Source: Thermoplasmata archaeon
GTDB lineage: Archaea > Thermoplasmatota > Thermoplasmata > Lutacidiplasmatales > UBA184
DNA: 64,000 bases
Assembly (NCBI GenBank): GCA_052326485.1
Contig: JBKQMS010000031.1
Location: 110,094-174,093, forward strand
Direction of reading: 5' to 3'
Shown: positions 1,319 through 31,462 of the stretch, piece after piece
Position numbering within the stretch: position 1 is the stretch's first letter
How the letters are laid out: each line of letters opens with the position of its first letter
Translations under genes and position numbers: made by a program
Notes under the pieces: model-generated
The model's database searches: none
The model's input: the letters and a program-made list of their open reading frames with translations, nothing else
Told to the model about the DNA's origin: nothing

Positions 1319-1391
1319 TAGCCCCGAACGGATTCGAACCGCTGTCGCCGGCTCCAAAGGCCAGCATGCTTGGCCACTACACCACGGGGCT
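1319..1391 (-). tRNA. tRNA-Gln (anticodon UUG)
   Basis: The reverse complement reads AGCCCCG-TG-GTGTAGTGGCCAAGCAT-G-CTGGC-CUUUGGA-GCCGG-CGACAG-CGGTTCGAATCCG-T?-CGGGGCT-A. It has a 7-bp acceptor stem with the A1:U72 pair typical of archaeal tRNA-Gln, a GGTTCGAATCC T-arm and the anticodon loop CU-UUG-GA. CCA is not encoded. Confidence 0.85.
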
Positions 1392-21805: not shown

Positions 21806-22420
21806 ATGGCGAGCTCTGCGTACCGGCACATGGCCCAGTCGTTCCAGCAGACGCTGGGTGAGGAGGGAGCCGCCCTCCGGCACGAGCGTCTCCTGCACTG
21901 GCGGCGGGAGAGCACGGTCACGCGGGTCGAGCATCCGACGCGCCTTGACCGGGCCCGCGCCGTAGGGTTCCGGGCGAAGGGCGGGTACGTGGTCGTACGC
22001 GTCCGGGTCCGCCGGGGCGGGCAGCGCAAGCGCGCGATCATCGCGGGGCGTCGCCCGAAGCACAAAGGGATCCTCCGGATGACGCTTTCGAAGAGCCTGC
22101 GTCGCATCGCCGAGGAGCGGGCGCAGAAGCATTACCCGAACCTCGAGGTCCTCAACTCCTACTGGGTGGGCGAGGACGGCAAACAGAAGTTCTTCGAAGT
22201 GATCCTCGTGGACCCCTCGCACCCCGAGATCCTCGCGGACCCCAAGATCGCGTGGATCGCCTCTCCCGTCCAGAAGGGACGTGCCTATCGCGGTCTCACG
22301 AGCGCGGGCACCGAGGGCCGTGGCCTCCGGTGGAAGGGGAAGGGGGCGGAGCGGTTCCGACCCTCGAGGGCCCGAAACCGCCGCGCGACCCGGCGGACCC
22401 AGATGAAGGTCATCCCGTAG
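21806..22420 (+). CDS. rpl15e: 50S ribosomal protein L15e
   Basis: MASSAYRHMAQSFQQ...GYVVVRVRVRRGG...RPKHKG is typical of L15e. Confidence 0.9.
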   Translation: MASSAYRHMAQSFQQTLGEEGAALRHERLLHWRRESTVTRVEHPTRLDRARAVGFRAKGGYVVVRVRVRRGGQRKRAIIAGRRPKHKGILRMTLSKSLRRIAEERAQKHYPNLEVLNSYWVGEDGKQKFFEVILVDPSHPEILADPKIAWIASPVQKGRAYRGLTSAGTEGRGLRWKGKGAERFRPSRARNRRATRRTQMKVIP

Positions 22421-22880
22421 GACGCTCGTCGTCCGTTTCGGCGAGCTCGAGCAGCTGTCCGAGGGACCGGTGGCCCTTTTCGGCCGTTCGAAGCGCCCAG
22501 CCGTAGAGCCCCTCGACATGGACGAGCTCGCCCCGCAGGACCCGTGCGAGCCGCCGCCGGTGCTCGAGGTCCGCTCCGGAACGACCGACCCCAAGGAACT
22601 CCTTGAGCCGCTGCGCGAGGTGCCCGCCCTCGGTGTCCCAGTCGGTGAGGATGATCACGTGGCGAGCGGTCGCGGTGAGATGCTGGGCCGTCTCCGAGAT
22701 GGTCCGTCCTCGGTGGACGAGGACGACCGACCCTCGAAGGCCGAGCCGGCGCAAGGCCCGCCGGTCGCGTTCCCCCTCCACGACCACCACGGTGCCGGGG
22801 GCGCGGCTGTCGCTCTGAAGACGGACCCACAGCTCCCAGAACTCATCGAACAACGCGGCCGGGTCTCGAACCGTCGCCAT
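22410..22880 (-). CDS. Toprim-domain protein (UPF0292-like)
   Basis: Has the Toprim Glu (VVVVEGERD) and DxD (ILTDWDTEG). I chose the ATG at 22880. Confidence 0.7.
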   Translation of the reverse strand: MATVRDPAALFDEFWELWVRLQSDSRAPGTVVVVEGERDRRALRRLGLRGSVVLVHRGRTISETAQHLTATARHVIILTDWDTEGGHLAQRLKEFLGVGRSGADLEHRRRLARVLRGELVHVEGLYGWALRTAEKGHRSLGQLLELAETDDERPTG

Positions 22881-22982
22881 CGAACCGCGCCCCTCCCCGC
22901 CGACCGAGACGCGGGCGGAGACCCGAGCAAGACCGCACATCTCCTATAGTCCTTCGGTTGTCCGCCCATCCCGCGAGAGCCG

Positions 22983-23654
22983 ATGGCCGACCACTTCACG
23001 CAACTGCTGGAATGGCGCCGCAACGAGCTCGCCGTTCGTGGCCTTGCGAAGCTCCCTCCGGAGTTCTACTCCGCGACCACTACCTACCTCGCCGAGCTGC
23101 GCCGGTCCTACGAGTCCGAGCTGCGCGAGAATCCATCGGGTCGGAAGGGGGACATCTCCCGCCAGACCTACCAGCGCGCGATCCAAGTCGCCCGGGACAT
23201 CGTCGAAGGTCGGGCCCAGAAGGTCCTCAACGCGGCGTTCCAGGCGAGCATTGGAGGGAGCCGCGACCTGGTGAACGCTCTGCCCGAGGAGCGCGCGATG
23301 TTCGACCAGGTCCTCTCGGTCCTCCTCGACCACCGTCGCTCGTCGGCGGCCTACATCGAGCCCACGCCAGGCCCGATCGCTCCGGCGGGTGCCCGTTCGG
23401 CCGAGGTCACAGCGGCGGCACCGGCGTCCGCGCCTCCCGCGCGAAGCCCCGAGGCGCCGACGGCGAGCCGACCTCGACCTTCGCTCGTTCACGTCCGGGT
23501 GCTCAAGGATTCGCGCCCGGTCGAGGTCGGGTCGGAAACGGTCGACCTCAAGGCCGACGACGTTCTCTCCCTGCCGCCCGAGACCGCCCGCATCCTTGCC
23601 GAGGCGAAGGTCGTGGAGCTGCTCGAGAGCTCGCCGAACCGCCCCGTCACGTAA
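22983..23654 (+). CDS. GINS complex subunit (Gins51/Sld5-Psf1-like)
   Basis: An N-terminal helical A-domain (LPPEFYSATTTYLAELRRSYE...) is joined by an Ala/Pro linker to a C-terminal small beta B-domain (VHVRVLKDSRPVEVGSETVDLKADDVLSLP). Confidence 0.6.
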   Translation: MADHFTQLLEWRRNELAVRGLAKLPPEFYSATTTYLAELRRSYESELRENPSGRKGDISRQTYQRAIQVARDIVEGRAQKVLNAAFQASIGGSRDLVNALPEERAMFDQVLSVLLDHRRSSAAYIEPTPGPIAPAGARSAEVTAAAPASAPPARSPEAPTASRPRPSLVHVRVLKDSRPVEVGSETVDLKADDVLSLPPETARILAEAKVVELLESSPNRPVT

Positions 23655-24806: not shown

Positions 24807-25592
24807 TCAACCGATGTACCCGAGGTCCTCTCGGGGAGCCGGGCCGGAGGGCGGAGTGCCCTCGGTCGACCGCGCCTCCGCCTCGTGGATCTTCTGGGCG
24901 ATCCGGTCGATCTCGTGCGCCTTCGTCTCGAGCGCCGTGAAGTCGATCTCGACCTCGAGGATCTTGGCCAGGACCTTGAGGACCGCCTGCGCGCTGCGGG
25001 GGTCGACGAAGTAGCCGCTCGTCTCGCCCATGAGACAGACCCCCTCCATACCGAAAAGGCGCCCCAGGCCGAGGAAGAGCCCGCTCGCCCCGATGAGACC
25101 GCCGCCGGGGTCGTTCCGAGAGAAGACCACGCCGAACTTCTTCATCGCCTCGACCTGTTCGGGCTTGGTCGCGGCGCCGAGGACGCGCGGGTCGTCCACG
25201 ACGCGGCCCTGCGCGAAGCCGGCGAGCGTGAACACCTCGCGGACGCCGAGGCCGTGGCAGTAGTCGAGGACCCGCTGGGTGATCTCGTACTGGCCCTCGG
25301 GAGAGATCCCTTGGTAGTCCCCGCCCAACACGAGGATGTCGCGAGGCGCGGACGGTGGCCCCTTCCAATAGTGAAGGTCGTTCGAAACGAGGCGGATGAT
25401 CCCGTCCTCGTTGACGTAGACCTGCGGAGGGAAGAACTTCGAATAGATGGTGGCGAGCGGCTTGGCCTTCAACTGCTCGCGCAGGTAGTCGGCGGCGAGC
25501 TTCCCCACGTTCCCGACGCCCGGAAGGCCCTCGATGAGGACCGGGTTCCGAAGCTCCACTTTCTCGAGCGTGCGGATGACGACGTCCTCCAC
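24807..25592 (-). CDS. PAC2-family proteasome assembly chaperone (PbaB-like)
   Basis: Contains LIEGLPGVGNVGKLAADYL and has an acidic/hydrophobic C-terminus ending in ...YIG. Confidence 0.75.
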   Translation of the reverse strand: MEDVVIRTLEKVELRNPVLIEGLPGVGNVGKLAADYLREQLKAKPLATIYSKFFPPQVYVNEDGIIRLVSNDLHYWKGPPSAPRDILVLGGDYQGISPEGQYEITQRVLDYCHGLGVREVFTLAGFAQGRVVDDPRVLGAATKPEQVEAMKKFGVVFSRNDPGGGLIGASGLFLGLGRLFGMEGVCLMGETSGYFVDPRSAQAVLKVLAKILEVEIDFTALETKAHEIDRIAQKIHEAEARSTEGTPPSGPAPREDLGYIG

Positions 25593-25660
25593 GGGGGTTC
25601 CACCTCGCCCGAAGCAGCCGGGGTCGGAGGATAAAGGTTAGCTTACCGCTCGGTAGGCCG

Positions 25661-26425
25661 CTATCGCGGACCGTCCGTGCGCTCTTCGACGTGCCAGCCG
25701 GTTTCGCCGATCTCGGCGTTCCAGATGCGCGTCAGGTCCGGTCGGTTCCCCACCTTCTGGACGGAAAGCGCGTGCTCGTAGTGGTCGTGCCGCGGTTCGG
25801 CCGACAGGTCGAAGACGACGTCCGCGAGGTCCTGCAGGAGCCCGAAGACCGCCCGCTCGTGGGCGACGGAGTGGGCCGTGATGAGCGCGTGGCCGCCGAT
25901 CGTCTGGCAGCGGTGCCGGATCTGGCGGGCGACCGTCGTCAGCTCGTGCGGCTCCATCACCTCGAGGAAGAAATCGACCGAATCCACGACCATCCGGAAC
26001 GGCGAATCGATGTTCGCGAGGTCGGAGAGCATGCGGTTCGTGAGGCTGAACGGGGTCAGCACCCGGTCCTGCGGCCGGACATCGACGAGGTCGTCGAGCG
26101 CGATCCCGCCCTCCCGAGCCTTGGCGATCTCGAGGCCTCGGACGAGCACGCGCTCGAAGTACTCGTCGGCCAGGTTGACGATACGGATCTCGTCCGGGTC
26201 CCATCCGAAGTCGTCGAACGCCTTCTTGACGTCCTCCGTCCGCTCGTAGGTGGTGTAGAAGAGGACCGGGACCGGCCCCGCGCCCGCGTGGGCGAACTGC
26301 TTCGCGAGGAGCGGAGCTCCGGAGCCCGAGGTCCCGGAGAGGACGGCGAGCCACCCCGGGGGGAGCGCCGTCCAGACCGGCTGGTCGATCTCGGGGATGC
26401 CGAAGATCCGGTCGGGTTCGGCCAT
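25661..26425 (-). CDS. KaiC/RadA-like RecA-superfamily protein, Walker A degenerate
   Basis: The P-loop position reads LSGTSGSGAPLL, with Lys and Ser/Thr lost. The Walker-B-like RMVVDSVDFF is retained. Confidence 0.7.
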   Translation of the reverse strand: MAEPDRIFGIPEIDQPVWTALPPGWLAVLSGTSGSGAPLLAKQFAHAGAGPVPVLFYTTYERTEDVKKAFDDFGWDPDEIRIVNLADEYFERVLVRGLEIAKAREGGIALDDLVDVRPQDRVLTPFSLTNRMLSDLANIDSPFRMVVDSVDFFLEVMEPHELTTVARQIRHRCQTIGGHALITAHSVAHERAVFGLLQDLADVVFDLSAEPRHDHYEHALSVQKVGNRPDLTRIWNAEIGETGWHVEERTDGPR

Positions 26426-26427
26426 GG

Positions 26428-27015
26428 CTAACGACCCACCCGCCCCACGTCGATCGTCTCGTCGACCACGAGGTTCAGCATCTGCTCGATCCCGGTGGTC
26501 TCCTCTTCGGACGTTTCGAGAACGAGCGTGAGCACCTGACGCGACTTCAGGTTGTTCAGGAGGATGTGGAAGAACTCGGAGAGGAGCTCGGGCTGGTTGT
26601 GGATCGCGAGGGAGTTCACGCTATCGATGACGACGATCTCGCGCGGATGCGGGAACTTCCGGAGCAGGTACTCGATGCGGAGCATGATCTCCTCGAGCGC
26701 CCGGGGGCTCTCCACATACGTCGCGTTCGGGAGCGGGTTCGCGTAGTTCATCATGATGTGGCTGATCGCATCGACGAAGGAGATCCGATCCGCCGGGACG
26801 TCGAGCGCCTGCGCCAGCGTCCAGACGAACGCGGCCGGGTTCGTTACGGTGAGGTAGATGGTGTGGGCGTCCGTCTCGCTCCCGACGTCCCGGAGCGTCG
26901 CGTTGAGGACCGCGAAGTAGTGGTCGGCGTACTCGCGGGGGTCCAGCTTCAGGGCCACGGCGCTGCCGCTCGGGAGCCCCCGAAGCCTTTCCCCGAGGTC
27001 CACTTCCGGGGCCAC
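26428..27015 (-). CDS. KaiC/RadA-like RecA-superfamily protein lacking a P-loop
   Basis: No GxxxxGK[ST] is present. It has the Walker-B-like IVVIDSVNSL and the same beta-strand/helix periodicity as its neighbours. It lies 2-3 nt from both flanking genes. Confidence 0.55.
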   Translation of the reverse strand: MAPEVDLGERLRGLPSGSAVALKLDPREYADHYFAVLNATLRDVGSETDAHTIYLTVTNPAAFVWTLAQALDVPADRISFVDAISHIMMNYANPLPNATYVESPRALEEIMLRIEYLLRKFPHPREIVVIDSVNSLAIHNQPELLSEFFHILLNNLKSRQVLTLVLETSEEETTGIEQMLNLVVDETIDVGRVGR

Positions 27016-27018
27016 GGG

Positions 27019-27834
27019 CTACGTGCCTCCTTCCCGCCCGCCCTTGAGGTGCGGGGCCATCAGGATCCCGATCGGGGTCAGCTGGATGACGAACTGAGCG
27101 TGGGAGTGCGCCGTTCCGCGCATCTTGATGACCTGGAGGATGCGCAGGATGTCGCCCATCCGGTGGGAGTTCGAGAGAAGGATGACGCCGTCCACGATCG
27201 CCTCCTCGACGCCGTGCAGGGAGTACCGGCCCGGGGTCGGCCCGATCTCGGAGACGAGCAGCGAGGTGCAGCCGACCTCGTTCAACTCCTGCCCGAGACG
27301 AAGCATGAAGTCCCGGATCTGTTCCTCGCGTCGGATCCGGTAGCAGACTGAAGTGAGGCTGTCCAGGACGAGGCGGCGTATCCCCAGCGACTGGACCAGG
27401 TCCCGGATCGTACGGAGCACGATCCCGATCTCCTCGCTGGTAAGCTCCTCCCGGCCCAGTCCGAGCCGGTCGTACGCCTTCGGAAGGTCGACAAAGACGA
27501 GCGACCCCTGCTCCACGAGGTCCTTGTGGAAGAACTCGAACGTGGAGAGATTCTGCATCAGCTTACGGGAGGCCTCGGTCACCGACAGGAACAGCGACCG
27601 CTCTCCCCGTTCGGCCCCGCGGACCAGGAACTCGAGGCAAAGGGTCGTCTTCCCCGTGCCGACGCTGCCGGCCACGAGGACCATGTTCCCGCGCGGGATC
27701 CCGCCTTCCAGGATGCTGTCCAGCCCCTCGATGCCGGACTGGCACCGCTCCAGGACCACGGCCGGCGGCAGCAACCCGTCCGCCGCGGGGGTCACCGTCG
27801 GGGTCGCCGGCGGTGGAACGGGGGGAAGTTCCAT
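27019..27834 (-). CDS. KaiC-like single-domain ATPase (intact motifs)
   Basis: Contains GIEGLDSILEGGIP, Walker A AGSVGTGKTTL, Walker B RLVLDSL and the VIKMRGTAH motif. Confidence 0.85.
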   Translation of the reverse strand: MELPPVPPPATPTVTPAADGLLPPAVVLERCQSGIEGLDSILEGGIPRGNMVLVAGSVGTGKTTLCLEFLVRGAERGERSLFLSVTEASRKLMQNLSTFEFFHKDLVEQGSLVFVDLPKAYDRLGLGREELTSEEIGIVLRTIRDLVQSLGIRRLVLDSLTSVCYRIRREEQIRDFMLRLGQELNEVGCTSLLVSEIGPTPGRYSLHGVEEAIVDGVILLSNSHRMGDILRILQVIKMRGTAHSHAQFVIQLTPIGILMAPHLKGGREGGT

Positions 27835-27857
27835 CGGTAGAACGAGCCGCTCCGTCC

Positions 27858-30218
27858 CTAAGAGGGTTGTGGACGCTCGGAACCTTTGGAGGAGGGTACG
27901 GAGGGCGGCATCCCCGTTAGGGTCGGAATCCTCGCCGGGTCGACCACCCAGACCGCGCTCCCGTCCGAACGCGCGCCCGAGACCATGGCCCCAGCCCGGC
28001 CGAGCCTCGCCCCGGCCTCTCGAATGGCCCGGCCCCCGGGGTCAAGCGAGCTCCTGAGCTCGGAGAGCTTCACCCGGACGGGCTCTCCCGCGGGCTGGGC
28101 GCGCGCTCGTTCGAGGATCCAGGCCAGGACCTCGTCGACGGTCGCGGGCGCGCTCTCGGTCCCGAGCCCTGGCTCCCCGGTTCCCGGAGGCGCTGCAGGA
28201 ATCGGTGGCACGCCCCCTTTCTCGGGGGAGCCTCGGTCGGGCCCCGTCGGTCGACCGACAGTGCGCACCCAGTCCACGGAGCTCCCTTTCCCGAGCAGCA
28301 CGGCCGCGTGGCCTCGGGGTAAGGCGAGGAGCTCCTCGACCGAGAGACTGTGCGTGGTCCGGGAGAGCTCCCGGGCCTCTTCGGGAGAGCCGCGGAACGC
28401 AATGAAGTCCGAAACGTTCGTCCAAACGGCATCGGCCACCGCCTCGGGGAGAGAGCCCACCGTCTGGGTTGCCAGGATGACGTGCACGTTCCTTCGACGG
28501 GCGAGCCGGAGCATCTCGGCGAGGCCCTCGTGCGAGAACCACTGCGACTCGTCCAGCACGACGAACGTCTTCGGGTTGGAGGGCCGCGCGAGGAGCTCCG
28601 ACCAGACCAGGGCCAGGTAGACGGCCAACAGGTAGCGGGCGACCGATTCGCCCACCGCCGATGCGTCACCGGAGATGACCGCGATCCGGCCCGATTCGAC
28701 GAGCTCCCTCGCGTGGAGCGCGGGGCTCCGTTCGCACAGCATGCGGTTGAGGACCGGGCTTCGGACCACCTCGTAGAGCAGTCGGCGAGCCCCCTCCGCG
28801 TCGTCCGGGCGCTCACGGACACGGTCCGCCAGGTCGCGGACGGCGTCCTGGGCCTCCGGAGGAACAACCTGGCGGGTCCTCCCTCCCGTGGCGAGGAGCG
28901 TGTGGGCATCGACGAGCGTACCGGTGGGGAACGCCGCGGCTGCGCTGACGGCACGGGTCAGCATCTCCTCGAGTCGCGGGCCCCAGTACTGGGAGTCCAC
29001 GTACCGGCCGGAACGGACCCGGCGGAGGGCGTGGACGATGTCGTTGAGCCGTCGGTCGGAGAGGACGGGGTCGGTCTCCTTCCCCCCGATTCCCTCGAGC
29101 GCGTTGATCCCCGCCGCTCGGCCAAGCGGGGCGACCTCGACGAGTCGGGTGCGCTCGTCCGCCGAGAGCCCGGAAAGGAACGACCGTGCGGTCTCCCCGA
29201 GGGGGTCGAATAGGACCACGCCGCCGAGCGTCGACGCCTTCCGGGCGATCGCGACCAGCGTCGAGCTCTTTCCCATGCCGGTCTCTCCGAGGACCACGAG
29301 GTGACGCCCCTGGTCGGTCTCCACGGGGGGACCGACCACGCGACCGGCCGTCGAACGGCCGAGGGGAAGGACCGGCAGTCCTTCGACCCCCTGCCCCTCT
29401 GGGAGACCCACGCCACACTCGATGCCGGGCAGGACGCATGCGAGCTCGTCCTCCGACAGGAGGAACCCCGGGGATAGCCACGGGAGGCGGCGGCGGCCTC
29501 GAGAGAACCGGACGCCGTTCGCTCGGCCCGACCGCAGGGCGACCTCGATCGCCGACCGGACTCGCTTCGCTGAGGCGGGGTCGTCCGCCTCCTGCCGAGG
29601 GAGCGCGACGGAGACGGTCGCTTTCCAAAAGAGCGGGACCGCCCGTGCCACCGGGGGTGTTTCCGGTCGGTCTGGGCGCGTCGTTCTCTCTCCGAGCCGC
29701 CGTTCCCCGTGGGCCGGCACGAACCTATCCACTCCAAAGTCACGGGGACGGCTCCAGGTGGCAGGGCACGGATTGAACCTCCATCGGACCGAGATGCCCG
29801 GGGTGACCCCGCTCAGCGCGAGGGCGAGGCAGTCGATCGCGGATGGGCCGTCGGAGGGCTCTCGTAGCGGCTCCGGCCAGTCGTGGAGCCTCGAACCCCA
29901 ACGAACGTCGGACCATGGGTCAGAGGTGAAAGGGAGCCGATGGACCCAGGAGGCGCGCCCGAAGGCCGCGAACAGAATCCGGCTGGCCCACCGGGAACTT
30001 GCCGGATCGGGGCACCGCAGCGTCAGCGTGGGTAGGGGGCCAGAAACGAGATGCAGCTCGAATGAGGCCGCCAGCCCGTGCCCGACCCGGAGGGCCGCGG
30101 TGAGCCGCTCCCGGAAGGCCGACCGCTCCTCGGAGCGTCGGTCTCGCGGGGGATGTGGAACCAGCTGCCACTCCGAGAAACTCTCGCTCTCGGTGGGCTC
30201 TGGCCGCCGCCGGGACAC
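27858..30218 (-). CDS. HerA/FtsK-clade P-loop ATPase with unassigned N- and C-terminal regions
   Basis: Has Walker A LVVLGETGMGKSST, Walker B FVVLDESQWF and the HVILATQTVGSLP motif. There are no TM segments. The GTG start at 30218 is uncertain, since no in-frame ATG occurs for >300 codons. Confidence 0.75.
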   Translation of the reverse strand: MSRRRPEPTESESFSEWQLVPHPPRDRRSEERSAFRERLTAALRVGHGLAASFELHLVSGPLPTLTLRCPDPASSRWASRILFAAFGRASWVHRLPFTSDPWSDVRWGSRLHDWPEPLREPSDGPSAIDCLALALSGVTPGISVRWRFNPCPATWSRPRDFGVDRFVPAHGERRLGERTTRPDRPETPPVARAVPLFWKATVSVALPRQEADDPASAKRVRSAIEVALRSGRANGVRFSRGRRRLPWLSPGFLLSEDELACVLPGIECGVGLPEGQGVEGLPVLPLGRSTAGRVVGPPVETDQGRHLVVLGETGMGKSSTLVAIARKASTLGGVVLFDPLGETARSFLSGLSADERTRLVEVAPLGRAAGINALEGIGGKETDPVLSDRRLNDIVHALRRVRSGRYVDSQYWGPRLEEMLTRAVSAAAAFPTGTLVDAHTLLATGGRTRQVVPPEAQDAVRDLADRVRERPDDAEGARRLLYEVVRSPVLNRMLCERSPALHARELVESGRIAVISGDASAVGESVARYLLAVYLALVWSELLARPSNPKTFVVLDESQWFSHEGLAEMLRLARRRNVHVILATQTVGSLPEAVADAVWTNVSDFIAFRGSPEEARELSRTTHSLSVEELLALPRGHAAVLLGKGSSVDWVRTVGRPTGPDRGSPEKGGVPPIPAAPPGTGEPGLGTESAPATVDEVLAWILERARAQPAGEPVRVKLSELRSSLDPGGRAIREAGARLGRAGAMVSGARSDGSAVWVVDPARIPTLTGMPPSVPSSKGSERPQPS

Positions 30219-30340
30219 GCCGGCCCGATCCTGCCGAAGGGCTTGGAGGTGTCAACGGGCACGGAACGTGAACTCTGGGCTATCGCGTCACTCTCAAGTA
30301 TCCGCTACGCCCCCAAGGGACGGAGCTCGCCCCGACACAA

Positions 30341-31462
30341 ATGTCCGCCCTGGAAGAACAGATCCTCGCGGTGGAGGACGAGATCCGCAACACCGCGTAC
30401 AACAAGGCGACGCAACTGCACATCGGGCGGCTCAAGGCGAAGCTCGCAGTCCTTCGGCTGGAGCGCGAGACCCGGGCCAAGGGAAAGGGCGGGGGCGTCG
30501 GCTACTCGATCCGCAAAAGCGGCAACGCCACGGTCGGTCTCGTCGGCTATCCCTCCACGGGGAAGTCGACGTTGCTGAACCGTCTCACCGCCGCCAACAG
30601 CGAGGCGGCCGCGTACGACTTCACGACGGTCTCGATCATCCCAGGAATGCTTCGCTGGGGCGGAGCCTCGATCCAGATCCTCGACATGCCCGGTCTCATC
30701 CCCGGCGCCTCGAAGGGGCGCGGGAGGGGCCGCGAGGTCCTGTCGGTTGTGCGGTCCACGGACCTCGTGCTGTTCCTGATCGACCCGGAGCATCCGAACC
30801 TTCGGGCGCTGACGGCTGAGATCGAGGGAGCCGGCGTGCGCATCAACCAGCGGCCACCGCGCATCGTGCTCCAGCGTTCGGACCGGGGGGGCCTGACGGT
30901 CTCGAGCACCGTGCGGCTGACCCATTTGGCGGGCGGCGGAGCCGCGCAGATCGCCCGGGAGTTCGGCCTTCACAACGGGTCGATCGTCTTCCGCGAGGAC
31001 GCCACGGCTGACCAGCTGATCGACGTGCTCGCGGGGAACCGCGTCTACGTGCTGGCGATCATGGTGGTGAACAAGTCCGACCTGATGACCCCGAAGGAGC
31101 GGACCCAGCTCGCTGCGGCCCTCAGCCCCTACGAGCCCACCTTCATCTCCGCCCGCGCCGGGACGGGATTGGATGTCCTGGTGGACCAGATCGGAACGAC
31201 CCTCAAGTTCATCCGGATCTACGTCAAGCCCCCCGGGCTGCCCCCCGACCGGGAGGAGCCCGTGATCCTCCGTCAGGGGGAGTCGGTCACCGAGCTCCTC
31301 CGAAAGCTCCCGGGGGACCTCAGTCGGACATTCAAGGCGGCCCAGATATGGGGGAAGAGCGCGCGCTTCCCGGGCCAGACCGTGGGGCGGGACCACATCC
31401 TATCCGACGAGGACATCGTTACTGTGCTCGTCGTCCGCGGCGGCGCTCGCGCGGCCTCGTAG
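30341..31462 (+). CDS. DRG/Rbg-type Obg-family GTPase with TGS domain
   Basis: G motifs GYPSTGKSTLLN, DMPGL and NKSD are present, with a C-terminal TGS (IYVKPPG...DEDIVTVL). Confidence 0.85.
   Translation: MSALEEQILAVEDEIRNTAYNKATQLHIGRLKAKLAVLRLERETRAKGKGGGVGYSIRKSGNATVGLVGYPSTGKSTLLNRLTAANSEAAAYDFTTVSIIPGMLRWGGASIQILDMPGLIPGASKGRGRGREVLSVVRSTDLVLFLIDPEHPNLRALTAEIEGAGVRINQRPPRIVLQRSDRGGLTVSSTVRLTHLAGGGAAQIAREFGLHNGSIVFREDATADQLIDVLAGNRVYVLAIMVVNKSDLMTPKERTQLAAALSPYEPTFISARAGTGLDVLVDQIGTTLKFIRIYVKPPGLPPDREEPVILRQGESVTELLRKLPGDLSRTFKAAQIWGKSARFPGQTVGRDHILSDEDIVTVLVVRGGARAAS

Follow-up and report, generated by a model that had tools for sequence, protein, structure and literature searches.

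A vertically inherited gene cluster of uncultured Thermoplasmata encodes a predicted VirB4/VirD4-like ATPase and three KaiC-family paralogues, two of them lacking a canonical P-loop

Few uncharacterised archaeal ATPases are as abundant as the KaiC-like proteins, and a role as plug-in regulators of other machines has been suggested for them, mainly on the basis of their gene neighbourhoods. In the ArlH-ArlI pair a single-domain KaiC-like protein is associated with a hexameric pumping ATPase, and ArlH is thought to be a nucleotide- or phosphorylation-dependent regulator. Inactive ATPases are contained in the Rad55-Rad57 and Rad51-paralogue complexes, and in FtsK a flexible linker joins the motor to a winged helix at the C-terminus (the γ domain). 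Archaeal loci for type IV pili and archaella moreover repeatedly pair a KaiC-family ATPase with a pumping ATPase of the FtsK/HerA superfamily (PMC4858521). Here we describe a cluster of four genes, named A, B, C and D, in a 64 kb stretch of DNA (hereafter the window) of contig JBKQMS010000031.1 of a Thermoplasmata archaeon, whose genome has a guanine plus cytosine (GC) content of about 69%. The product of gene A is a soluble P-loop ATPase that belongs to the FtsK/HerA superfamily and has a predicted fold nearest to VirB4 and VirD4 (TrwB), and not to HerA or FtsK proper, while B encodes an intact KaiC-family ATPase and C and D encode P-loop-dead KaiC-like proteins. That B, C and D form a heteromeric assembly partnering the VirB4-like motor A, in a vertically inherited module of housekeeping grade, is a reading to which we give roughly an even chance.

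In the searchable literature we found no system joining a soluble VirB4/VirD4-like ATPase with KaiC-like proteins; Makarova et al. 2017 (KaiC hubs) and Iyer et al. 2004 (FtsK-HerA) lay outside this search, and their supplements may list it. A preliminary description of this DNA had stated that the combination could not be mapped to a described system. This stands at the level of the system, but the theme of a KaiC-like protein accompanying a pumping ATPase is known from ArlH-ArlI and from the KaiC genes of type IV pilus loci in archaea (PMC4858521). Since both this theme and RecA-fold heteromers with dead subunits are known, the module is not categorically new.

The four genes lie on the minus strand in the order A-B-C-D (lengths in nucleotides, nt, and amino acids, aa):

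27858..30218, minus strand: gene A, 786 aa, GTG start
27835..27857, minus strand: A-B intergenic spacer, 23 nt (median 24 nt over 79 loci)
27019..27834, minus strand: gene B, 271 aa
26428..27015, minus strand: gene C, 195 aa, GTG start
25661..26425, minus strand: gene D, 254 aa

The gaps of 23 nt (A-B), 3 nt (B-C) and 2 nt (C-D) and all the motifs quoted in the preliminary description were found in the list of open reading frames (ORFs). The GC content by codon position in A-D (0.83-0.93 at the third position against 0.36-0.57 at the second), together with the hundreds of full-length homologues that the sequence search returned for each of A, B, C and D, indicates that all four are real genes.

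The homologues of A all came from metagenome-assembled genomes (MAGs) of Thermoplasmata, of a kind abundant in peat and acid soil, and the named groups among the matches were Ca. Lutacidiplasmatales, UBA184 and UBA61. The preliminary description had made its proposal depend on a conserved co-occurrence of the four families in other genomes, and this co-occurrence was found. Species-representative loci (GTDB) with at least 3.5 kb downstream of A were considered informative (n=66), and B, C and D were present downstream of A in 64 of them. An independent contig scan gave the same result in 48/48 metagenome loci with enough downstream sequence, all four genes being kept in 112/114 informative loci. 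Over the 79 species-representative loci the remaining median gaps were 3 nt (B-C), 2 nt (C-D) and 65 nt between D and the PAC2-family gene that follows it.

In the main clade the whole block is syntenic over these 79 loci, with Nop56, fibrillarin and a DRG GTPase gene upstream, the last of them divergent from A, and with PAC2 downstream. As the flanks are syntenic as well, we examined lineages in which they differ. A-B-C-D is kept in three distant lineages in which A is 32-35% identical, and in one that was examined for it, L088, the N-terminal domain of A has been replaced. The gene after D is not PAC2 in these lineages, where we found an MFS transporter (L088/L094, GC 58-59%), a tRNA deacylase (L090) or a His_Phos_1/Ppx pair (L091); PAC2 is a constant neighbour of D in the main clade only. 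On the other side, three main-clade loci without the upstream Nop56/fibrillarin/DRG block still keep A-B-C-D-PAC2. The divergent arrangement of DRG and A is kept in most lineages, which makes this adjacency as old as the A-B link. The fact that A-B-C-D remains intact where the flanks change is good evidence for a selected four-gene module. The operon is vertically inherited and, among the matches listed (for C and D the best 120 rows, filled by close orthologues), confined to one group of uncultured Thermoplasmata.

The pattern of one intact and two P-loop-dead KaiC-like paralogues, noticed in the preliminary description for this locus, is fixed in all the homologues examined: a canonical Walker A was present in 73/73 B proteins, 0/71 C proteins and 0/69 D proteins (counts that include three distant homologues each). 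All three proteins exceed the cut-off of the Pfam KaiC family (PF06745, 26.6 bits), B with 183.5 bits (E=5e-54), D with 48.2 bits (E=1e-12) and C with 29.6 bits (E=6e-7). Each has a single domain, and the scores against the clock KaiC equivalogs stayed far below their cut-offs (NF006799, 147 vs 408; TIGR02655, 97 vs 546). No further KaiC-family paralogue was seen elsewhere in the window, and neither kaiA nor kaiB was among the annotated genes around the homologous loci, a listing in which no search was aimed at these two genes. The relevant motifs are located as follows:

27646-27669, minus strand: Walker A of B, GSVGTGKT (G56-T63), from the sequence
27022-27075, minus strand: invariant C-terminal tail of B, TPIGxLMAPxLKGG
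26923-26949, minus strand: KLDPREYAD, at the P-loop place of C
26608-26634, minus strand: Walker-B-like strand of C, VVIDSVNSL
26312-26335, minus strand: GTSGSGAP of D, with the Walker Lys changed to Ala and the Thr to Pro

B is an intact single-domain KaiC-family ATPase (aRadC/COG0467-type), which besides its Walker A carries LVLDSL and KMRGTAH. The Walker A, the catalytic E87, the Walker B D158 and the K237/R239 finger are invariant. Compared with the sequences of known structures, B matched KaiC CI domains at E=1e-42 to 1e-53, Pyrococcus PH0186 at E=8e-39 and the aRadC-type Sso2452 (2w0m) at E=2e-18. C contains no GxxxxGK[ST]; it aligns to residues 73-186 of B, and the region of the K-x-R finger is missing from it. 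Among 22 members of the C family, PF06745 was found in all 22, DUF7504 in 20 and a sub-threshold Elp5/Iki1 match in 18, and the profile of C had no match among PDB sequences. From these features we read C as a truncated KaiC-fold pseudo-ATPase; its model, built on a shallow alignment with a mean predicted local distance difference test (pLDDT) score of 50 and with KaiC and RecA as best Foldseek matches at E~1e-4, supports the fold class only. D aligns to B over its whole length (217 columns in hhalign), matches KaiC structures at E=4e-12 and keeps the Walker-B Asp as well as the Lys of the KxR finger (K224), and in some lineages its glycine-rich motif (GxSGSGAP) has eroded still more, as in NAPTDAEAS. 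D is thereby predicted to be a full-length KaiC fold unable to bind ATP via the Walker lysine. By net charge C and D are acidic and A is basic. In a plasmid search C had no match and D had remote bacterial KaiC-like matches only.

Translation of the KaiC-family paralogues B, C and D appears to be coupled. Inside the 3' end of B there is a GGAGG, 9 nt ahead of the GTG start of C, and B and C share a reading frame, so that window positions 27015-27021 hold the B stop, one codon and the C start. Together the two proteins would count 466 aa, close to the length of a two-domain KaiC. The in-frame layout with its 3-nt gap recurs in close relatives, whereas B and C are out of frame in the distant L088, L090 and L091. 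A programmed readthrough from B into C was considered and rejected on account of this difference of frames. The in-frame arrangement looks like translational coupling, or possibly like the trace of an old split.

The product of A carries the motifs GETGMGKSS, FVVLDESQWF and HVILATQ. An AlphaFold2 (AF2) model, predicted as a single chain from an alignment (pLDDT 79), divides it into the following parts:

29433..30176, minus strand: N-terminal α/β domain, aa 15-262 (AF2 model, pLDDT mostly 80-93; no Pfam match)
28254..29366, minus strand: RecA-like ATPase core, aa 285-655 (AF2 model and alignments)
29265-29288, minus strand: Walker A, GETGMGKS (sequence)
28701-29069, minus strand: all-α insert, aa 384-506, corresponding to the all-α domain of TrwB
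28548-28565, minus strand: Walker B, FVVLDE (sequence)
Before the winged-helix-like domain, minus strand: disordered, variable linker, aa 658-688 (AF2 model)
27942..28139, minus strand: winged-helix-like domain, aa 694-759, of helix (H) and strand (E) order H-E-H-H-E-E (pLDDT 83-91)
27861..27941, minus strand: disordered C-terminal tail ending in a conserved S..PQPS (pLDDT <50)

The Walker A and the Walker B residues D556/E557 are invariant in 26 homologues, and all the catalytic residues of A are invariant. The winged-helix-like domain is still present in lineages linked to B, C and D in which A is as little as 35% identical, the alignment extending to aa 759, and Q784 and S786 of the tail are nearly invariant in the main clade. 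The conserved C-terminal peptides of A (PQPS) and of B (LKGG) could be docking peptides, a role that peptides of this kind often have. As stated in the preliminary description, A has no transmembrane segment: the highest 19-residue Kyte-Doolittle mean is 1.59 and falls on a helix modelled within the ATPase core. More widely, no hydrophobic segment in A-D reached a transmembrane score.

When the A model was compared with the PDB by Foldseek, the top match was the full-length TrwK/VirB4 (7o43_B, E=2e-12, 816 aligned columns). Further matches were TrwB/VirD4, with template modelling (TM) scores on the target of 0.62-0.64 (0.62 for 1e9r), the C-terminal domain of VirB4 (4ag5, TM on the target 0.69), HerA (4d2i, E=5e-10) and Cagβ. 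Among viral models the best matches were full-length VirB4/TraC-like proteins of Bacillus phages, Gp156 of phage G reaching E=1e-24. The full-length alignments to VirB4 and to Gp156 suggest that the modelled N-terminal domain of A is VirB4-type. At the sequence level, the A profile aligned a HerA/TrwB-type 'RHLxVLGETGxGKS...FDPLGE' stretch to 4d2i, 8j4u and 1e9r. In Pfam the only match was a marginal one to DUF87, over 40 residues around the P-loop (26.7 vs a cut-off of 23.2), and the N-terminal domain, the helical insert and the C-terminal domain, queried separately, gave nothing at E up to 10. The best hidden Markov model (HMM) of the defence libraries for the ATPase core was PADLOC mad8 (PDLC04140, E=3e-21, profile positions 5-287 of 314). 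The nearest plasmid-encoded proteins were VirD4-type or DUF87, at 23-28% identity and over the core only; the phage collection gave no match, and PHROGs gave only weak matches at the level of the P-loop. The placement of A in the HerA/FtsK/VirB4-VirD4 clade, made in the preliminary description, therefore holds for the superfamily and fails for HerA or FtsK in the narrow sense, the best matches being TrwK and TrwB, and by its scores A appears to stand outside every curated sequence family.

Among haloarchaeal plasmids, the best match to the A core (26% identity over ~315 aa) was a DUF87-annotated protein of 3197 aa on the Halobaculum magnesiiphilum plasmid NZ_CP081960.1 (L093 5183-14776). We rejected this match, given the giant size of the protein and its unrelated context.

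With ArlH-ArlI the locus shares the pairing of a single-domain KaiC-like protein with a pumping ATPase of the FtsK/HerA superfamily. It differs in that the motor A is predicted to belong to the VirB4/VirD4/HerA branch instead of the VirB11/PilB/ArlI branch, in that three KaiC paralogues, two of them P-loop-dead, stand against one active ArlH, and in that no ArlJ/TadC membrane platform and no pilins accompany the genes. B and D scored 34 and 18.6 against the ArlH equivalog NF052589 (cut-off 215), and no archaellum genes were found in the window or in related loci. Near the A-D cluster there is no nuclease, membrane channel or archaellum gene, in line with what the preliminary description had reported.

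VirB4 (TrwK), VirD4 (TrwB) and CedB resemble A in the core fold with its all-α insert, in a length of ~790 aa and in the layout of N-terminal domain plus motor. The fold agrees, but the sequence thresholds of these families are not reached (TrwB_AAD_bind 15.9 vs 20.5; TraG-D_C 16.6 vs 22; AAA_10 12.7 vs 27.5; CedB equivalog 9.5 vs 700; the CedD equivalog also far under its cut-off). Unlike these proteins, A lacks a transmembrane anchor such as that of VirD4, has an additional C-terminal winged helix, and sits in a fixed chromosomal context of housekeeping genes without partner genes of the Ced system or of a type IV secretion system (T4SS); no T4SS genes were seen in ~130 loci inspected by HMM or Pfam listing. 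With HerA, A shares the P-loop block 'RHLaVLGxTGsGKS...FDxxGE', the marginal DUF87 match and a similar structure of the core. However, the scores against HerA_C (11 vs 22) and the HerA equivalogs (NF040937, 21 vs 800; NF040819, 10 vs 970) leave A outside the family, the model contains no HAS barrel, its N-terminal domain being α/β, and no NurA/Mre11/Rad50 or Sir2/DUF4297-type partner is encoded here. FtsK belongs to the same superfamily and has the same order of motor, linker and winged helix, but A lies below FtsK_SpoIIIE (12.1 vs 24), its C-terminal 97 aa do not match Ftsk_gamma, it has no membrane domain, and FtsK was not among its top structural matches.

Elp456 and the Rad51-paralogue/Rad55-Rad57 complexes resemble what is proposed for B, C and D, being heteromers of two or three RecA/KaiC-fold paralogues, of which some or all lack the ATPase motifs. 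On the other hand, B scored 16.1 vs 28 against PAXNEB/Elp4 and C scored 15.2 vs 22.5 against Iki1/Elp5, no Elp3 was seen nearby, and the sequences of B, C and D are much nearer to KaiC; the parallel is one of analogy and not of membership. The mad8 protein, of ~314 aa, is part of the eight-gene bacterial MADS operon (bioRxiv 10.1101/2023.03.30.534895). Its HMM is the best in the libraries for the A core, but A has added N- and C-terminal domains, B has a weak P-loop match to the MADS set and C and D have none, no other mad genes are present and the context is one of housekeeping genes. The Haloferax cirA-D genes were rejected as an analogue of the triad, as they are dispersed and all keep their Walker motifs (PMC3941300).

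From this we propose a working model in which each step is conditional. With no more than 2-3 nt between their genes and one active protein always accompanied by two dead ones, B, C and D seem to be produced in stoichiometric amounts. They would form a single RecA-fold heteromer, arranged as a mixed ring or as stacked rings. In this complex B would be the sole nucleotide switch, and the acidic pseudo-subunits C and D would give fixed interaction surfaces. The active site of B could be completed by D or by another B subunit, because D keeps the Lys of the K-x-R finger and C is without that region. On the model of ArlH-ArlI and of the KaiC genes that recur in type IV pilus loci of archaea, the B/C/D complex may dock on a presumably hexameric A and gate or target an ATP-driven translocation. 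The substrate would be a nucleic acid, most likely DNA, with the winged helix assisting its binding. What the data show are the gene structure, the family and fold assignments, the motif states and the conservation of the closely spaced cluster; the oligomeric state, the contact between A and B/C/D, the substrate and the cellular role belong to the inference.

Several observations weigh against a B/C/D assembly that partners A, and most of them speak for an alternative which we consider possible, if somewhat unlikely, namely that A and B-C-D are two independent units and neighbours by descent only, B-C-D being a self-contained KaiC-like signalling or switch complex, a role proposed for archaeal KaiC paralogues in general, and A an unrelated VirB4-like ATPase kept beside it by the frozen gene order of a housekeeping region that rearranges slowly. 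Nop56, fibrillarin, DRG and PAC2 are syntenic together with A-B-C-D, which is in part plain inherited gene order, so that adjacency by itself overstates functional coupling. Between A and B the most divergent sub-lineage of the main clade carries an antisense gene of 180 aa (MTVYIGLLRAVNVGG...), which may resemble DUF1697, and in L083 ~4.5 kb of unrelated genes are found there as well, so that A can be transcribed separately from B-C-D. The antisense A-B insertions are the following:

L083, 9322-13658: insertion between A and B
L085, 9348-9890: insertion between A and B
L080 and L082: likewise between A and B

The PQPS tail of A is absent in the loci with this antisense gene. Furthermore, in the species-representative locus L066 (6809-10613) A is followed directly by PAC2, without B, C and D, in a second such locus, L009 (7001-15176), A stands alone with no adjacent B, C or D, and relatives of A at 25-28% identity in low-GC Thermoplasmata MAGs have no KaiC neighbours. 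The idea of the four genes as a unit, put forward in the preliminary description, is accordingly borne out by their conservation, but their linkage is not absolute. The rates of evolution are very unequal as well. Mean pairwise Kimura distances for eight families over 46 loci were 1.00 for A, 0.74 for Nop56, 0.55 for D, 0.535 for fibrillarin, 0.275 for B, 0.271 for C, 0.268 for DRG and 0.239 for PAC2, A evolving ~3.7 times faster than B and C. A mirror-tree analysis of the same 46 loci, in which partial correlations were taken after removing the housekeeping background, gave no specific co-evolution signal between A and B, C or D; the value for A-D (0.53) is no higher than those for A-fibrillarin (0.49) or DRG-PAC2 (0.61), so this analysis does not discriminate. 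Two points concern the proposed assembly itself: the model of C is of low confidence, and the DNA substrate is deduced from the superfamily of A and from a modelled winged helix that has no family assignment. Neighbourhood by descent fits poorly, however, with A-B-C-D remaining contiguous through three changes of the downstream flank and at least one of the upstream flank, with the presence of all four genes in nearly every informative locus, and with an A-B gap that keeps its median length and its strand over the 79 loci.

A module for recombination or repair, in which B, C and D would be mediators of the RadA-paralogue type and A a HerA-like translocase for end processing or branch migration, would accommodate the match of B to the aRadC-type Sso2452 and to RecA (the RadB/RadA models remained below threshold), the matches of A to HerA hexamers and the basic charge of A with its winged helix. 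We regard it as distinctly unlikely, given that no NurA, Mre11, Rad50, nuclease or helicase gene was found in the cluster or the window, that B is far nearer to KaiC CI domains than to RadA/RadB, that A has neither a HAS barrel nor a HerA-like equivalog score, and that the acidic C and D are a poor fit to DNA binding. The VirB4/VirD4 fold of A, its VirD4-type or DUF87 plasmid relatives, the mad8 match over its core and its full-length structural match to Gp156 of Bacillus phage G could in turn point to a domesticated or decaying remnant of a mobile element or defence system, in which a conjugation (T4SS) or MADS-like ATPase is left with accessory genes. This is highly improbable in our view, because the cluster occupies a fixed chromosomal site amid housekeeping genes in more than 110 loci, its composition is that of the host, the catalytic residues of A are all invariant, and the slow evolution of B and C, on a par with DRG, speaks for strong purifying selection; nearby there is no integrase, relaxase, VirB6/VirB3, methyltransferase or further mad gene, and phage matches are absent and plasmid matches remote. 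An involvement of B-C-D with the downstream PAC2 in proteasome or protein-complex assembly, with A being incidental, is likewise hard to credit. PAC2 does follow D on the same strand throughout the main clade, at the median distance given above, and is equally conserved, but it is not adjacent in the three distant lineages with A-B-C-D, it is preceded by a TATA-like box, and in L066, where B, C and D are missing, it stays beside A.

Whatever its function, the locus is a clean natural case of a fixed neighbourhood with a fixed division of labour among three KaiC paralogues, next to a likely client motor of the VirB4/VirD4/HerA branch, which had not previously been linked to KaiC proteins. C is as constrained as the DRG GTPase encoded next to the cluster, which argues for a structural role with many contacts, probably with several partners. 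If the assembly of B/C/D with A is real, the principle of a KaiC-like regulator plus a pumping ATPase would extend beyond pili and archaella, and four soluble proteins would offer a tractable recombinant system for asymmetric RecA-fold rings with pseudo-ATPase subunits; if A moves DNA, a so far unrecognised chromosome-handling activity would exist in Thermoplasmata. A bolder extension, which we put forward as a speculation and consider unlikely, is that A-D make up one near-essential machine of these wall-less soil and peat Thermoplasmata, in which a soluble VirB4-like DNA motor, whose winged helix would read sequence or structure, controlled by a KaiC-derived hetero-ring with one live ATP site, would carry out a core chromosome transaction such as segregation, dimer or catenane resolution, or DNA uptake. 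To our knowledge no dedicated archaeal system has been described for that transaction. Prokaryotes would then have, in such a machine, their own counterpart of Elp456 and similar pseudo-ATPase rings.

The cluster is flanked by the two housekeeping genes named in the preliminary description, and the surrounding features are the following:

30341..31462, plus strand: DRG-type GTPase gene (MMR_HSR1+TGS orthologue, by homology)
30219..30340, no strand: divergent intergenic region between A and the DRG GTPase gene, candidate site of the A-B-C-D promoter
24807..25592, minus strand: PAC2-family gene (PF09754, E=1e-55), 68 nt 3' of D

The promoter of A-B-C-D presumably lies in the divergent intergenic region, in which no clear TATA box was recognised. 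Ahead of PAC2, an AT-rich CTTTAT at 25631-25636 (minus strand) stands ~41 nt before the GTG start in an otherwise GC-rich spacer, and a GAGGTGG is found ~7 nt before the same GTG. As judged from these signals, PAC2 probably has its own promoter and lies outside the A-B-C-D transcript. The GC content is even across the locus, and the flat composition, the absence of phage matches and the remoteness of the plasmid matches agree with the earlier view that this is not a mobile island. The remainder of the window, as sampled, encodes housekeeping functions, namely pyruvate kinase, ArgRS, PurB, PPDK, cytochrome b, ribosomal proteins, Nop56 and fibrillarin. A tRNA-Gln (anticodon TTG, 1319-1391, minus strand) was the sole Rfam or ARAGORN match in the window.

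The distant relatives of A at 25-28% identity (L086 8001-12155, L089 1-3959, L092 7001-11086) always follow UbiA-PcrB and end tail-to-tail, overlapping by a few bases, with a convergent gene for a DEAD/Ski2-like helicase of 520 aa. This UbiA-PcrB/helicase setting is a second conserved context for the wider A family. The insert between A and B in L083 also holds genes for three paralogous secreted or membrane proteins and for a Pro-rich zinc-ribbon protein.

Three other genes of the window were recorded. An ORF of 463 aa (48927-50318, plus strand) has a good coding signature and no Pfam match at E up to 1e-5. A stand-alone small Toprim-domain protein of 176 aa (22410-22940, minus strand; PF01751, E=3e-8) is encoded close to a divergent 223-aa protein without a Pfam match (22983-23654, plus strand), and in related loci the Toprim and 223-aa genes are conserved neighbours downstream of the PAC2/Methyltransf_28 pair.

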